Made by a program: the position numbers and the translations under genes. Shown one piece after another: positions 1,757-7,344 of a stretch of 64,000 bases of DNA (positions are counted from its first letter, which is position 1; each line of letters opens with the position of its first letter). This DNA comes from Betaproteobacteria bacterium (GTDB taxonomy: Bacteria > Pseudomonadota > Gammaproteobacteria > Burkholderiales > Casimicrobiaceae): the NCBI GenBank assembly GCA_032123655.1, contig JAQBEY010000120.1, forward strand, positions 2 to 64,001. The letters run 5' to 3'. The notes beneath the pieces were generated by a model. The model worked only from the letters and a program-made list of their open reading frames with translations. It had not been told where the DNA came from and made no database searches.

Positions 1757-3397
1757 TTGCCGGTTATGGGGCTCATGATTGAACGCGATCCATCGGCGGA
1801 ATTAAAGGCCGAAAACGATCGGCTGATCGCGCTGTTGGAAGCAAAGGGCATTCAATGGCGCATCCAGCAGCCAGAGCGCTCGTCGCCAGCGTCGGCGCCG
1901 GAGACCTCACGGCTTTCCACGGGCGGGAAGGTGGCGCTGTTTCGGCGGTTATTCCTTGGGCGCACGGATGTCTACCCGATTCGTTGGGAGAGCAAGACGT
2001 CGGCCAAGTCCGGTTATTCGCCAGCCTGCGCCAACGAATGGCGTGCCGGTGTCTGCGAAAAACCGCGCATCAAATGCGGGGACTGTAGTAACCGAATGTT
2101 GATTCCGCTGTCCGACTCGGTCATCTTCGACCATCTGGCCGGCGAGCATACAGTTGGCGTCTATCCCCTGCTCGAGGACGACACTTGCTATTTCCTCGCC
2201 ATCGATTTCGACGAAGCCGAGTGGAGAGAGGACGCTCGCGCCTTCGTACAGTCGTGTGGCGAACTTGGCGTGCCCGTTGCCCTCGAGATTTCGCGCTCTG
2301 GCAAAGGGGCGCACGCCTGGGTGTTTTTCGCTGGCCGGGTCTCGGCCCGCGATGCCCGTCGCTTGGGCACGGCCATCATCAGCCACACCTGCTCGCGAAC
2401 CCGGCAATTGAAATTGGAGTCTTACGACCGGCTGTTCCCCAATCAGGACACGATGCCTAAGGGCGGCTTTGGCAACCTGATCGCATTGCCCCTGCAGAAG
2501 ATGCCTCGTGAGAACGGTTATAGCGTTTTCGTTGATGCGGAATTGCACCCCTACCACGACCAGTGGGCGTTCTTGGCGTCCATCCATCTGATGGCACCGC
2601 ACGACATCGAGCCGACCATCCTGCGTGCGACGGGCAGGACGCATCCACTGGATGTCACTTTCATCGACGAAGAAGACTTGGCTACGCCGTGGAAGCGTTC
2701 GGCCCCGTCCACGAAGCAGCTGCCGGGGACAATGCCGAAGTCACTCACTGTGACGCTGAGCAATCTCATCTACTTCGAGAAGGCTCAGTTGCCGCAGTCC
2801 CTGGCGAACCGTCTGATCCGCCTCGCCGCGTTTCAGAACCCGGAGTTCTACAGGGCGCAGGCGATGCGGATGTCGGTGTGGGACAAACCACGCGTGATTG
2901 GTAACGCGGAAAACTACCCACTGCACATTGGCCTGCCGCGCGGATGCCTGGATGCCGCAAAGGAACTGCTGAAAGACAACGGCATTGCCTGCGAACTGCG
3001 TGATGAGCGTTTTGGCGGAGAGCCGCTGGACGTCGCGTTTTTCGGTAAGCTGCGTACCGATCAGCAATCGGCTGTTGCCACAATGCTGAGCTATGACGCT
3101 GGCGTTCTATGCGCGCCTACCGCCTTCGGCAAGACGGTCGCGGCGGCAGAGATGATCGCCAAGCGTGGTGTAAACGCCCTGGTACTGGTGCATCGCACCG
3201 AGTTGCTCAAACAGTGGCATGAACGTCTGCAGGCCTTCCTCGGCGTCGGCAAGGGCACGATCGGCACAATCGGCGGCGGCAAAGCCAAGCCTACGGGGAA
3301 GATTGATATAGCGGTGATGCAGTCTCTGTCGCGGCAAGGCGAGGTGCACCCGCTGGTGGAGAACTACGGTCACGTCATCGTGGATGAGTGCCACCAC
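1757..3397 (+). pseudogene. Archaeo-eukaryotic primase (AEP)/SF2 helicase fusion ('TOTE conflict system'-like), 3' end truncated by IS21
   Basis: N-terminal coiled-coil (AELKAENDRLIALLEAKG) and Cys cluster (CEKPRIKCGDC). AEP core motifs FLAIDFDE, SRSGKGAHAWVFF and GGFGNLIALPLQ. Helicase Walker A (APTAFGKTV) and motif II (VDECHH). The frame runs into the IS21 left end at 3398 and helicase motifs III-VI are absent. The last 23 codons of the tracked ORF (to 3469) are IS-derived. Confidence 0.75.
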
Positions 3398-3447
3398 TGT
3401 CGGCGCCGATCGAATTTTGACCACCTGTGCCGATTGAATTTTGACCA
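3398..3447. repeat. IS21 left terminal inverted-repeat block with two subterminal repeats
   Basis: gccgatcgaattttgacca (3405-3423) and gccgattgaattttgacca (3429-3447), mirrored at the right end. Confidence 0.75.
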
Positions 3448-3603
3448 AGGATCTTGTGCCGTCCTTTGAAGGGACGGCTGTGCATAAGTGTACGTGATCG
3501 TGGGTGTTCGGCTTCTCCTTGAGAGTCTTCTTCGTGGGTCGGTTCGCGCGGGGGAAGTCGCGTAGGGCGTAGCCCGGAGCGAGTTTTCCCGCGCGGCGTT
3601 CGG

Positions 3604-4398
3604 TTATGGCTTCGCTGCAGTGCCCGTCCGCTTGGCTTGCTCCCGCGCCTTGATGCGCGACTTGGCCGTGGCGCTGCTGTGGCTGAACCGGTAGGACTCG
3701 TTACCCGTCTCCACGATATGGCAGTGATGGGTCAGGCGATCCAGCAACGCCGTGGTCATCTTCGCGTCACCGAACACGCTGGCCCATTCGGCGAAGGTGA
3801 GATTGGTGGTGATCATCACGCTGGTACGCTCGTAGAGCTTCGAGAGCAGGTGGAACAGGAGCGCCCCACCGGGCTGGCTGAATGGCAGGTATCCCAGCTC
3901 GTCCAGAATCACCAAATCCATGCGCATCAGCCGAAACGCGATGCGCCCCTGCCTGCCCTGGACCTTCTCCTGCTCCAGGGCATTGACCAGATCGACCGTC
4001 GAGTAGAACCGCACCCGTTTGGCGTGCCGGGTGATGCCTGCCACGCCAATCGCGGTCGCCAGATGCGACTTGCCCGTGCCCGTGCCACCGATCAGCACGA
4101 CATTGTGCGCGGCCTGGACGAACGACAGATCGGCCAACTGCTCAACCAGCGCCCGATCCACCTTGGACTGCGTGAAGTCAAAGCCCGCCAGATCGCGGTG
4201 AACGGGGAACTTTGCCGCATTCATCTGGTTGCTCGTCGAGCGAACGGATCGTTCCGTGCGTTCAGCCGCAAGCAAGTGCTCGATCAACCAGCTCGAGGTG
4301 TCCAGCGACGCGTTCGTACCCTGCGCCAACAGGTCGGCCCAGGCGCCGGCCATGCCGTATAAGCGCATCTCCTTGAATTCGGCGGCCACATCACGCAT
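3604..4398 (-). CDS. istB: IS21-family helper ATPase IstB
   Basis: Starts [24 protein letters not shown]. Walker A is [11 protein letters not shown] and Walker B is LVILDELGY. The ATG at 4398 overlaps the istA stop (4391-4393) by 8 nt. Confidence 0.9.
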
Positions 4399-5929
4399 GG
4401 CGCACCTCCTCGGTGCTGTCCTCGTCGCTGCCCTCATCGCGCAGGCGGTCATAGCGCCCCGTGTCAGCAACCGGCACCTCCGTGACCTGCAACAGGGTCT
4501 CGACCTGTTCGAGCGGCTCGCTGGGCTTGAGCCGGCCCACCACGTTGATCACATGCTCGGCACTCACCGCGCCGGACTCCAGCACCAGTTCCACCGCCAC
4601 CAGAACGGCCTCAATCCCCGCGCCAGGCACGGCGGCAAGCACCTGCGCCATGACGCGGTCACCGCCCTCACGAGGCAGCAAGGTGCTTTGCAGCCGCCGT
4701 AGCGCCTCGGGCATGTCTGCGAACGGGGCTCCGTTCCTGAGTGCACCCGGCTTTCTCTGTACCAGCGGAATGTAGTGCTGCCAGTCGTAGCGGGTCTGAC
4801 CGCGCTCGGTCAGCCGTTCGTGGGTCGCAACCAGTGCTTCGCTCGCCACCACCTCCACGCGCTGCGGGTACACCCGCACGCTGACCATCTGGCCCACCAG
4901 ATCGCACGGCACCGAGTACCGGTTGCGCTGCACGCTGATCAGGCAAGTGCTCGACACCCGCCCAAGGCTCTCGACATAGCCGTCGAACGCCGCGGGCATC
5001 GGCATCAGGTGCGGTTGCTCATGCTCGAGCATCTCGGCCACACTGAACTCCCGATGCTCGGGATGGCGCACTTCGCCCCACAGCGCCCGGCAGCGGGTTC
5101 CCACCCAGGCGTTGAGCGCAACCAGCGAGCTAAAGCGTTCCCTGCCCGCGTCCTGCCAGATCCGCCGCCGACTGTCCTGCACGTTCTTCTCAACGACACC
5201 CTTCTCCCAGCCAGAAGCGACGTTGCAGAAATCGGCCTCGAACAGATAGTGCGCGCACAGCACCCCAAAGCGAGCGTTGACGATGCGCCCCTTGCCCTTT
5301 TGCACCTTGTCCACAGCGGTCTTCATGTTGTCGTAGATGCCCCTGCGCGGCACCCCGCCCAACGCCTCGAACGACCGCGTGTGCGCATCAAACAGCATCT
5401 CGTGGCCCTGGCTCGGGTAGGCCACCAGCCAGAACGCGCGACTCGCGCACAGCTTCAAATGCGCCACCTGCAGCCGGCGGTAGATCCCGCCCACCACAAG
5501 ACCCTCTTCGCTCCAGTCGAATTGGAACGCCTCACCAAGATCGAATTTCAGCGGCACGAAGGCGCGCCTCGCCTGCGCTTGTCCAACGCTTTGGCGCCAG
5601 TACCGGATGAAGTCCGTCACTCGCGTGTAGCCGCCCTTATAGCCCTCACGCCTGAGCTGCGCACACAGCGCACGCGCAGTTCGCCGGTCTCGCTTCGGAC
5701 GGTGAGCGTCCGTTTCCAGTGCCTGAACCAACTGCGCCTCGAACGCCGAGAGCTTGCCCAGCGTGTCCCGCCTTCGGTATTTCGGGGGCGCGGCCTGCGC
5801 AACCTTCAGCCACTTCTTGACCGTATTGCGCGACAAACTCGTGCGCCGCGCAATCTCGCTGAACGACATATTGTCGCGCAGATACATCCGTCGAATCTTG
5901 CCAACCAGTGCCATGGTAATCACCTCCAT
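4391..5929 (-). CDS. istA: IS21-family transposase IstA
   Basis: 512-aa ORF with an N-terminal HTH ([22 protein letters not shown]) and a DDE integrase core typical of IstA. The true start may be the ATG at 5914 (MALVGKI...). Confidence 0.9.
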
Positions 5930-5968: not shown

Positions 5969-6028
5969 TGGTCAATTTTGAATCGGCACTACCCCTCTAA
6001 TCTGGTCAATTTTCGGTCGGCGTCAACA
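5969..6028. repeat. IS21 right terminal inverted-repeat block with two subterminal repeats
   Basis: tggtcaattttgaatcggc (5969-5987) and tggtcaattttcggtcggc (6003-6021). The element ends ...aaca at 6028 (reverse complement TGTT...). Confidence 0.75.
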
Positions 6029-6328
6029 CCCCGGCAACAGCGCCTTGCCACCGAGGTCCACGACCACGGTGTTTGCGCCCTTGTGGGCCTTCTCGACATC
6101 GGCGCGCATACCCACCGCCACGATCTTGCCGCCTTTGACGGCCAGCGCCTCCGCGCTCGGCTGCCTGTCGTTGACGGTGACGATCTCACCACCGGTATAG
6201 ATCGTGTCGGCGGCGTCGACCTGCTGCACCGCCGCCTGCGGTGGTGTGGACTCCTGCGACTTGCCGCAGCCCGTCAGCAGACAAGCGGTCAGCAGCGCGA
6301 TGGCGGGTATGGAGAGAGACAGTTTCAT
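6029..6328 (-). pseudogene. Amidohydrolase-family lipoprotein, N-terminal fragment only (3' end removed at the IS21 right end)
   Basis: Lipoprotein signal MKLSLSIPAIALLTACLLTGC, then ...IYTGGEIVTVND...ALAVKGGKIVAVG...VVDLGGKALLPG. This breaks exactly where amidohydrolases continue with the metal-binding F-x-D-x-H-x-H segment. The junction is at 6028/6029. Confidence 0.6.
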
Positions 6329-6424
6329 TGCGCTTCCTTTGACGTTCGACGCTATTGCTGTATGCGGGGTGCTTGGTGAGATGAGGGCAAAGCGCGGTCC
6401 CCTCGTGGCCGAACCGAATTTTAC

Positions 6425-6439
6425 CGGGTCACTCAGGAA
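6425..6439. repeat. 15-bp direct repeat copy A (cgggtcactcaggaa)
   Basis: Identical 15-mer recurs at 7551-7565. Partial similarity continues about 13 nt downstream (xxgatgxatg). Confidence 0.7.
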
Positions 6440-6731
6440 ATGATGCATGGACAGGAATGGGCTGCTCGGGATTGCCTGGCATTGGCCGGCATTGACCGGG
6501 CCAGCGGAATCAAACGCGGGGCCGGGGCTGATGAGTGGCCGCTATGCGGCACGCAAACAGTTCAAGGGAACTTCTGCTCTGGGTCGGGTGCAGGCTTTCG
6601 CTCCGCCCCGACGAAGGTCAGCTTCAGCTCAGCAAACCGACGCTCACGGTACCCCTGCCTGCTCCACTCTCCGCACTGCCGAAACGCAGCCAGGGTCCCC
6701 GACAGGTGTTCCGCTTGACGGAATCCTTGTG

Positions 6732-6757
6732 GCGGATCACAATCGCGCATGATCCGC
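6732..6757. promoter_or_regulatory. Perfect 8-bp inverted repeat spanning the higB start codon
   Basis: gcggatca-N10-tgatccgc; the higB ATG (6749) lies inside the spacer and right arm. It is a candidate antitoxin operator or translation-masking hairpin. Confidence 0.35.
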
Positions 6758-7027
6758 TCGTTCGCGTGCGCTGATACCGAGGCCTTGTTTCACAGCCGAG
6801 CGGTGTCCCGCTTCCGCAACATTGAGCGCGTCGCGAGACGCAAGTTGCTTCAGATCCACGCCGCCACCGAGCTGGCCAGCCTGCGCATCCCACCGGGCAA
6901 CCAGCTGGAGGCGCTGAAGGCCGACCGCAAGGGCCAGCACAGCATTCGCATCAACGACCAGTGGCGAATCTGCTTTGTCTGGAAGACCGATGGAGCGCAC
7001 CGCGTCGAGATCGTGGACTACCACTAG
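6749..7027 (+). CDS. higB: Type II toxin HigB (RelE/ParE superfamily, plasmid maintenance system killer)
   Basis: 92-aa ORF with the HigB-type signature ...HSIRINDQWRICFVW..DGAHRVEIVDYH. The toxin-first order with the downstream HigA is typical. Confidence 0.85.
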   Translation: MIRSFACADTEALFHSRAVSRFRNIERVARRKLLQIHAATELASLRIPPGNQLEALKADRKGQHSIRINDQWRICFVWKTDGAHRVEIVDYH

Positions 7028-7038
7028 GAATACGGAAC

Positions 7039-7344
7039 ATGGCCAAGTTGCTCGAAGAGATTCATCCGGGCGAGATCCTGCTGGAGGACTTCATGAAGCC
7101 CATGGGCATCAGCGCTCGCCAGCTCGCGGCGGACATCGATGTCTCGCCGAGCAGGATCAGCGAATTGGTGAATGGCCAGCGCCCCATCACGGCGGACACC
7201 GCGCTTCGGCTCGGGTTGTTCTTCGGCATGGAGCCCCGGTTCTGGCTGAACCTGCAGTCCGAGTACGACATCCGAGTCGCGGACCGGGAACTCCGAGCCA
7301 AGCTCTCGCCAAGGATCCGCGTCTTCCAGCCGGCCGTGGCGTGA
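7039..7344 (+). CDS. higA: Type II antitoxin HigA (XRE-family HTH)
   Basis: Starts MAKLLEEIHPGEILLEDFMKPMGIS. The HTH is ARQLAADIDVSPSRISELVNGQRPITADTALRL. The ATG at 7039 is 11 nt after the higB stop. Confidence 0.85.
   Translation: MAKLLEEIHPGEILLEDFMKPMGISARQLAADIDVSPSRISELVNGQRPITADTALRLGLFFGMEPRFWLNLQSEYDIRVADRELRAKLSPRIRVFQPAVA

Follow-up and report, generated by a model that had tools for sequence, protein, structure and literature searches.

The stretch of DNA analysed here (the window: 64,000 nucleotides of contig JAQBEY010000120.1, from a Betaproteobacteria bacterium of the Casimicrobiaceae) carries near its left end the remains of a gene that joins a primase-polymerase (Prim-Pol) domain of the archaeo-eukaryotic primase (AEP) type to a superfamily 2 (SF2) helicase. 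The gene stands directly behind an AbiE toxin–antitoxin pair and is cut short by an insertion sequence (IS) of the IS21 family. The corresponding open reading frame (ORF) occupies positions 1757–3469 of the forward (+) strand, encodes 570 amino acids (aa) and is present as an earlier, sequence-only reading had described it. Its native part begins at TTG 1757, although ATG 1766 and ATG 1775 are further possible starts. The features of this native part are as follows, those called motif or cluster, and YDRLFPNQD, being placed by motif position.

1757–3397, + strand: native part of the truncated Prim-Pol/SF2-helicase gene, 547 codons from TTG 1757
1793–1858, + strand (aa 13–34): N-terminal amphipathic helix, a leucine-zipper-like coiled coil (AlphaFold2, AF2, helix at residues 9–26 of homologue P0001)
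1928–2611, + strand: complete Prim-Pol (AEP) catalytic domain (PF22548, E=2.4e-100)
2027–2086, + strand (aa 91–110): Cys4 cluster CANEWRAGVCEKPRIKCGDC
2192–2215, + strand (aa 146–153): AEP DxD motif FLAIDFDE
2291–2329, + strand (aa 179–191): AEP SxSGxGxH motif SRSGKGAHAWVFF
2423–2449, + strand: YDRLFPNQD in the AEP domain
2462–2497, + strand (aa 236–247): AEP GNLIALP motif GGFGNLIALPLQ
2612–3046, + strand: middle alpha/beta region between Prim-Pol and helicase (invariant residues, e.g. NPEFY..AQAMRMS..KPRVI)
3047–3397, + strand: SF2 helicase lobe 1 only, XPB/RadD-like (ResIII and DEAD matches stop at the junction)
3113–3139, + strand (aa 453–461; GKT aa 458–460): Walker A motif APTAFGKTV
3383–3397, + strand (aa 543–547): helicase motif II DECHH

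The sequence-only reading had placed a coiled coil, a Cys cluster, AEP motifs, Walker A and DECHH in this one ORF, and each is found where it had been placed. It had also made its case depend on the AEP motifs scoring against a primase-polymerase model, and they do: the ORF matches PF22548 (AEP-TOTE) with 335.3 bits against a cut-off of 27, over aa 58–285 and model positions 2–228 of 230. Other Pfam matches are to ResIII (E=9.7e-15), DNA_primase_S (5.3e-11) and DEAD (1.3e-10), with ResIII and DEAD spanning aa 431–555; the matches are far beyond chance. The AEP catalytic residues are intact (in window numbering D150-F-D152, S179..H186 and the third acidic residue D224). No Pfam model matches the middle region in a search of the ORF; the AF2 model has strands and helices at residues 326–413. 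Matches to HALZ in homologues P0137 and P0279 back the assignment of the N-terminal helix as a coiled coil, a possible dimerisation element.

The closest full-length homologue is P0001, a protein of 799 aa that is 95.8% identical over nucleotides (nt) 1766–3397 (tblastn). The native part of the window's ORF corresponds to residues 1–544 of P0001, that is, to the front two-thirds of the gene. The window copy has SF2 motifs I and II in RecA lobe 1; a search with P0001 as query found motifs III–VI and RecA lobe 2 (Helicase_C) neither in the ORF nor elsewhere in the 64-kb window, and the 255 codons lacking from the gene (its 3' 765 nt) are likewise not there (P0001 tblastn). With lobe 1 only, helicase activity is therefore lost, and the remnant could at most give a helicase-dead Prim-Pol protein.

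The break coincides with one end of the insertion sequence, whose features, together with those of its flanks, are these.

3398–3469, + strand: IS-derived ORF tail, 23 foreign codons and a stop, diverging from the native sequence of locus L004
3398–6028, − strand: IS21-family insertion sequence, 2,631 bp (IstA, IstB and terminal repeats)
3604–4470, − strand: IstB (Pfam IstB_IS21, E=2.5e-85)
4391–5929, − strand: IstA (Mu-transpos_C_2, E=1.9e-20)
6029–6448, − strand: 5' fragment of an amidohydrolase-like lipoprotein gene cut by the IS (ORF 6023–6448 runs into the IS; weak HUTI_composite match)

At the junction 3397/3398 the window continues from CAC into TGTCGGCGCCGATCG, whereas the native gene of L004 continues from CAC into GTCGGCGCGGTG. 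The element has istA followed by istB, as is usual in its family, and terminal inverted repeats that start with TG; it begins with TGTCGGC.. at 3398 and ends with ..GTCAACA at 6028, the right end being set by homology to a Methylibium IS21 copy (annotated istA/istB homologues lie on plasmids). A 19-nt terminal repeat occurs four times (3405–3423, 3429–3447, 5969–5987 and 6003–6021), as two direct copies per end, against 0.02 copies expected by chance. These four repeats belong to one element; there is no second IS21 copy in the window. No target-site duplication of 4–8 bp is apparent, the left flank reading ..CCACCAC and the right flank CCCCGGC.., and this, together with the loss of the 255 codons from the window, shows that the insertion came with a deletion or rearrangement. 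The amidohydrolase-like fragment at the right flank is not present in the syntenic loci L003, L009 and L011, and the two flanks were therefore not contiguous originally. The IS21 junctions thus imply IS-mediated deletion, inversion or inter-copy recombination. The sequence-only reading, which had the gene inactivated at helicase motif II by IS21 at 3398, was correct as to the cut; insertion alone, however, does not account for it.

Lineage-specific changes, too few for a test of relaxed selection to reveal decay in the remnant, divide into synonymous and non-synonymous in a ratio of 9:5 in the remnant and 13:9 in the intact L004 lineage; the resemblance suggests that inactivation is recent. 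We conclude that the locus is almost certainly a pseudogene, namely 1.64 kb from the 5' end of a gene encoding a Prim-Pol/XPB-like helicase of about 800 aa, recently broken by an IS21-associated deletion or rearrangement. In itself it is an ordinary dead gene of little importance; the family to which it belonged makes a good experimental target.

That family is large. A homologue search scored more than 8,000 word-sharing matches, the best 120 of which are 780–815 aa long and at least 80% identical. An exhaustive search of 50%-identity cluster representatives returned 35,775 matches at E<=1e-3, and more than 150 of these representatives are full-length Prim-Pol plus helicase proteins (E<1e-139). 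With tens of thousands of sequence clusters, the family is among the more abundant predicted conflict proteins without a phenotype. RefSeq and UniRef call its members either 'DEAD/DEAH box helicase family protein' or 'TOTE conflict system archaeo-eukaryotic primase domain-containing protein', and the latter name, given in the sequence-only reading, is indeed carried by close homologues.

To describe conservation we use an alignment of 34 sequences in P0001 numbering, which comprises two clades 42–45% identical to each other. Invariant throughout are the Cys4 residues (Cys88, Cys97, Cys104 and Cys107), the AEP residues D147-F-D149, S176/S178/G179/G181/H183 and D221, and the helicase residues GKT 455–457, DECHH 540–544, TATP 566–569 and QxxGRxxR 737–744. 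The invariance of the catalytic residues across both clades means that both enzymatic centres are under selection. The AEP domain comes closest in structure to the Marinitoga CAPP Prim-Pol (7NQD, 7P9J; target-normalised TM 0.74–0.79), which a profile search of PDB sequences also finds (E=5.6e-20). For the helicase the nearest PDB relatives, at 13–21% identity, are T4 UvsW, RadD, XPB and archaeal XPBII, whose partner is the Bax1 nuclease. Relatives that reach 930–1,100 aa bear at the C-terminus a PLD-like nuclease (PLDc_2) or a DUF559/Vsr-like endonuclease (MTES_1575). At the other end of the protein, single cluster representatives carry N-terminal fusions to a PNP/UDP phosphorylase-superfamily domain, a GNAT acetyltransferase and an FMN reductase-like domain (P0182, P0168 and P0144); these could be sensor or regulatory modules, or fusions created by gene calling.

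We took a census of 80 genome loci from the clade 76–91% identical in amino-acid sequence, plus loci fetched for individual proteins; genes were called with a simple home-made caller based on GC3, whose calls matched the database calls of L001. In 60 of 72 loci the gene upstream lies on the same strand and is no more than about 50 nt away, or overlaps. What occupies this upstream slot varies greatly: across the 72 loci it is filled by about 20 unrelated families, among them (Pfam-verified) AbiEii, YgjP-like peptidase, RhuM, McrC, HsdR, BrxL, Fic, DUF1829, RlaP and DUF4357, with HsdM/S/R, McrB, GmrSD, YhcG and type III-like Res genes farther upstream. The association is markedly polar. Of 59 loci, 41 have a defence or toxin–antitoxin gene in the 6 kb upstream, whereas on the downstream side 6 of 55 have one over the same distance (Fisher p=9e-11); 17 of 59 loci show linkage to type I restriction-modification. 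The search for full-length homologues and their neighbours that the sequence-only reading had called for thus returned defence genes, and the plasmid replicases or housekeeping genes that it had named as the refuting alternative were not seen among the full-length homologues. By gene order, the intact gene is a stand-alone unit that closes variable clusters of restriction, Abi, toxin–antitoxin and BREX genes at their 3' end. No cas genes occur in any neighbourhood examined, and SOS or repair genes are not conserved neighbours in the examined loci. Three members of the PLD-nuclease clade that we examined sit alone among ordinary chromosomal genes.

The commonest upstream neighbour is an all-helical protein of 181–187 aa, encoded at 23 loci (e.g., L051:7466–8011; also L091:8454–9017). 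Its gene overlaps the start of the primase-helicase gene in all of these loci but one, in most by 16 nt, an arrangement that suggests translational coupling, and within its sub-clade the protein is possibly a cognate regulator or partner. Neither Pfam nor NCBIfam has a match for it, and a relationship to E. coli YfjJ/Gp2, considered as a candidate, was not found.

In the window itself the upstream slot is held by AbiE.

34–852, + strand: AbiEi antitoxin/transcriptional regulator gene (Pfam AbiEi_1, E=3.7e-19; PADLOC AbiEi, E=3.3e-92)
849–1727, + strand: AbiEii nucleotidyltransferase toxin gene (Pfam AbiEii, E=3.2e-29; PADLOC AbiEii, E=7.4e-98)

The two genes overlap by 4 nt and have the hallmarks of an AbiE type IV toxin–antitoxin pair. 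The AbiEii stop codon lies 29–38 nt ahead of the primase-helicase start, a gap so short that the two are probably co-transcribed. The same order is found in L003, L004–L009, L011, L019 and L078; overall AbiEii is directly upstream in 14 of 72 loci, at a constant gap of 27–42 nt. In ten loci, among them L003 and L009, which are syntenic with the window, the primase-helicase comes after guaB-guaA (the window begins at AbiEi, so that the guaA junction lies beyond its edge). Four of these ten (L012, L013, L018 and L023) have the primase-helicase without AbiE, which makes AbiE a facultative neighbour and, by this comparison, apparently an independent system and not a conserved partner. The statement of the sequence-only reading that the gene sits immediately after AbiE is true of the window, but AbiE is one of some 20 interchangeable upstream neighbours.

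Downstream of the gene, the guaA-context islands of the window's lineage encode a 386-aa protein (MSEYQYYEFIAIDEPLT..) with a charged coiled-coil C-terminal half (L009:10446–11606, a fragment in L003, and L010–L013, L017, L023, L026 and L031), usually followed by a protein of 107 aa. The former has no Pfam or NCBIfam match, the latter no match in NCBIfam, the one collection searched for it. Both were searched for across the window and neither was found.

The segment 1–3397, which holds AbiE and the primase-helicase, has a G+C content of 60%, compared to 65.8% for the whole window, and this is consistent with a horizontally acquired islet. The locally lower GC, taken with amino-acid identities of 76–91% across Beta- and Gammaproteobacteria, indicates recent horizontal spread of the gene. 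An origin in phages is unlikely: 50,697 phage records held no full-length homologue and only helicase-only matches of about 27% identity.

Behind the gene, at least 16 loci share a conserved stretch of 90–110 nt with ..GCCACCA at its end; beyond this point the loci are no longer similar. A tRNA-like or templating non-coding RNA was considered for this stretch and rejected, there being no match in Rfam and, according to RNAalifold, 0 conserved pairs among 16 sequences. The stretch makes better sense as the attR arm and core of islands that have inserted at the 3' ends of tRNA or tmRNA genes. Genes for tmRNA lie 2–4 kb upstream in L036 and L055, tRNA-Met and tRNA-Ala genes lie upstream in L057 and L059, and in L046 and L057 the tRNA end has a P4-type integrase beside it. 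In L055 (6109–10480) a 17-nt direct repeat, CCACCATTTACCAAAAA, brackets a mini-island of 4 kb that holds only Fic and the primase-helicase, with no integrase.

The E. coli gene belongs to a serX-linked CP4-like island, in which int-alpA-yfjI-yfjJ precede it. Among 5,426 complete E. coli genomes, 1,730 contain a match and 684, including O157:H7, contain one with at least 80% query coverage. Three partial matches were inspected and all are annotated 5' pseudogene remnants; two are followed by a 1,652-aa AAA protein and a 478-aa protein, the third by unrelated small genes. The AAA protein and its companion seem to be cargo that has replaced the gene at one and the same hotspot of the island. One near-identical E. 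coli copy is split by an IS3 element. The frequent decayed E. coli copies fit ordinary turnover, where the sequence-only reading had suggested that disruption may reflect cost or counter-selection. Many E. coli genomes keep just about 330 nt of the gene's 5' end, annotated as a pseudogene, with the AAA protein and the 478-aa protein behind it (e.g., L092:12001–18912 and L098:7001–13912).

The gene is also found on 128 plasmids, and every carrier is at least 47 kb long and has its own replicon, so that a role as replicase of small plasmids is unlikely. On Dinoroseobacter plasmids it stands among genes for DUF736, strawberry-notch and recombinase proteins. Pantoea stewartii plasmid pDSJ06 (L089:8406–12313) has it between a serine resolvase gene (at a gap of 29 nt) and a DUF4158 Tn3-type transposase fragment, from which it follows that the primase-helicase can travel as cargo of a Tn3-family transposon.

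The family bears the TOTE name, and it is pertinent to ask whether it also belongs to a TOTE system. According to PMC12458937, the acronym stands for TPR, OB, TBP and Effector, and the system is a computational prediction credited there to Aravind, Iyer & Burroughs 2022. Among the papers that our literature search found, TOTE systems are mentioned only in this one, the YprA/ARMADA preprint. The window's ORF matches the Effector part, which takes in AEP primases, RNase H and others: it has the TOTE-type AEP domain by Pfam (227 of 230 model positions), the RefSeq name and the Prim-Pol plus SF2 helicase architecture. The partners are another matter. There is no TPR-OB (S1/CSD) or TBP gene in the first 9 kb of the window; since the window's downstream DNA is deleted, the test rests on intact relatives. 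No TPR-OB or TBP gene occurs in the precomputed Pfam neighbourhoods of six homologues (from the window's clade and the PLD clade), no TPR, CSD or TBP is among the recurrent neighbour clusters of the window's clade, and none is among the 25 most frequent families listed in a Pfam scan of 149 further neighbour clusters. The window copy is truncated, and in both the window's clade and the PLD-nuclease clade the gene is alone. The sequence-only reading, in speaking of a conflict system, therefore had the domain label right, while membership in the system fails for want of conserved TPR, OB or TBP neighbours. The family had already been named and predicted computationally; new here are this failed membership, the polar placement at the ends of defence clusters and at attR, the nuclease-bearing sister clades, and the frequency of decayed copies.

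Comparison with characterised systems places the protein between several of them. With Marinitoga CAPP (7NQD, 7NQE, 7NQF, 7P9J) it shares the catalytic motifs and the closest solved AEP structure, and the cas-associated 'PrimPol' profile of PADLOC gives the window's ORF 379 bits; however, the NCBIfam equivalog PrimPol_Msp scores 81 against a cut-off of 200, the neighbourhoods examined have no cas genes, and the window's family differs in its fusion to an XPB-like helicase, its N-terminal coiled coil and its Cys4 module. XPB, XPBII–Bax1, RadD and UvsW are the best matches to the helicase part in sequence and fold, and the theme of helicase plus nuclease recurs in the PLD and DUF559 clades, but these proteins act in repair, transcription or recombination and have no primase, and of this helicase the window copy keeps lobe 1 only. 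A PADLOC match to RT_UG10_large (aa 157–261) reflects a homologous Prim-Pol domain in DRT7/UG10. In DRT7 this domain has been shown experimentally to be the DNA-synthesising part of an abortive-infection defence; its partner domain there is a reverse transcriptase and synthesis is protein-primed, whereas the window's family has a helicase instead. The pairing of AEP and helicase on mobile DNA is shared with pRN1 ORF904, P4 alpha and AgaPP with its PriCT-DUF3987 helicase. Those proteins use SF3, D5-like or DnaB-type helicases and are essential for replication of the element, whereas the window's family has an XPB-like SF2 helicase, its carriers have other replicons or replication genes, and it is often lost. 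Single-gene defence proteins that combine helicase and nuclease include Mokosh type II, Hna and hhe, which the sister clades of 930–1,100 aa resemble in being stand-alone and in joining an SF2 helicase to a C-terminal nuclease; to our knowledge these three have no Prim-Pol domain, and the window's clade has no nuclease.

As to function, we favour, at slightly better than an even chance, the view that the intact protein is a stand-alone conflict or defence protein of genomic islands and large plasmids, usually encoded as the last gene behind restriction, Abi or toxin–antitoxin modules. This view is supported by the polar association with defence modules, by the fusions to nucleases, by a distribution that is patchy, mobile and prone to decay, and by the precedent of DRT7. 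The XPB-like motor would bind duplex DNA, translocate with ATP and open a bubble without need of a free end. Once a strand of the invading phage or plasmid DNA is exposed in this way, the Prim-Pol would start and extend primers on it, and such priming would derail replication of the invader or make aberrant DNA products; in the sister clades, the PLD or Vsr-like nuclease would cut the engaged DNA. Substrates, trigger and antiviral outcome in this scheme are postulated, and are set beside domain homologies, catalytic invariance, genomic associations and a truncation that are observed. If it is a defence protein, the known immune mechanisms would gain one in which a primase-polymerase is joined to a motor that opens duplexes, and there would be a link to the DNA-synthesising DRT systems. 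More tentatively, as a rather unlikely reading, the nuclease-less Prim-Pol/XPB-like helicase may be a new stand-alone immune effector that acts through DNA synthesis and not cleavage, perhaps also a generic terminal 'helper' co-transcribed with whichever module lies upstream. A helper role would explain both the constant last-gene position and the high conservation beside hypervariable partners.

Several observations weigh against a role in defence. The window's clade has neither a nuclease nor any other obvious effector, the nearest characterised relatives of its helicase (XPB, RadD and UvsW) are enzymes of repair and recombination, and the AF2 model of the protein is of moderate quality (pLDDT 69, pTM 0.40). 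The gene is always the last before attR in the at least 16 loci described above, which could mark a backbone gene of the island. The neighbourhood census rests on a home-made gene caller and on cluster annotation. PADLOC, the only defence-annotation tool tested, has no system model for the protein and offers just the cas-associated 'PrimPol' profile. Finally, our literature search found no experimental study of this architecture, in agreement with the sequence-only reading, which knew of no experimentally shown mechanism or phenotype.

The main rival holds that the protein belongs to the backbone of the islands: a replication or establishment enzyme of integrase-bearing islands and of the leading regions of conjugative plasmids, opening and priming the DNA of the element after excision or entry, with the upstream defence genes as cargo. 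Pairs of AEP and helicase are the classic replication module of mobile elements, AgaPP being an example, and this explanation accommodates the terminal block formed by the gene and its 90–110 nt before the att core, with a tRNA or tmRNA gene at the other end and in L046 and L057 a P4-type integrase as well. It also accommodates the Dinoroseobacter plasmid context, and high conservation beside hypervariable cargo, which resembles that of core genes flanking hotspots. We nevertheless consider it unlikely. The carrier plasmids, at 47 kb or more, have their own replicons and no small plasmid depends on the gene; the E. coli islands already possess a replication-type protein, YfjI (DUF3987), adjoining it, and in many strains it is replaced or decayed and hence dispensable. 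Mini-islands such as that of L055 consist of Fic and the primase-helicase alone, the sister clades with PLD or Vsr-like nucleases stand alone in ordinary chromosomal contexts, and the guaA-context loci, those of the window's relatives included, lack such an island end. Moreover, the element replicases known to us have SF3 or DnaB-type helicases and not an XPB-like SF2 enzyme. Should the protein be such an engine after all, it would account for the propagation of a large class of islands that carry defence genes and sit at tRNA and tmRNA genes. Intact E. coli alleles, such as the O157 gene for WP_000233452.1 (L088:8986–11346), make the family unusually easy to test, whatever the outcome.

A third explanation, which we regard as distinctly improbable, is that of a horizontally spread enzyme of DNA repair or damage tolerance, which would reprime synthesis and remodel forks, including after self-damage from adjacent restriction systems. 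It draws on the best helicase matches (RadD, XPB, Hef and UvsW), on the pairing of XPB with the Bax1 nuclease, a parallel to the nuclease-fused clades, and on the frequent linkage to type I restriction-modification; an E. coli PrimPol-RT protein, according to PMC12439943, contributes both to an oxidative-damage response and to defence. Yet a patchy, island-borne, often decayed and recently transferred distribution is atypical of repair genes, conserved SOS or repair neighbours are lacking from the examined loci, and the polar position behind defence modules would be left unexplained. Least probable, and largely refuted, it seems, by the comparative context, is that AbiE and the primase-helicase form one three-gene system, with AbiEii as effector and the primase-helicase as sensor, or that the locus was a canonical TOTE system whose TPR-OB and TBP partners went with the IS deletion. 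The former is suggested by the 14 loci with AbiEii immediately upstream at a near-constant gap; it is contradicted by the four guaA-context loci that carry the gene without AbiE and by the variety of families that share the upstream slot, and AbiE is a self-sufficient toxin–antitoxin/Abi pair. The latter is made conceivable by the deletion of the window's downstream DNA, which hides any partners from direct view, but intact relatives (L003, L009–L011) have the 386-aa and 107-aa proteins in that place, and the 25 most frequent families listed for the 149 neighbour clusters include no TPR, CSD or TBP.

To the right of the IS21 element, synteny with the relatives of the window is resumed by HigBA, RidA and a TadA-like deaminase. 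The HigB-like toxin gene (6749–7027) is intact and, with the helix-turn-helix (HTH) antitoxin ORF at 6961–7344, makes a second toxin–antitoxin pair within 7 kb of AbiE. The same HigB/HTH pair lies about 1.2 kb downstream of an intact primase-helicase gene in L077, with a DNA identity of 89%.

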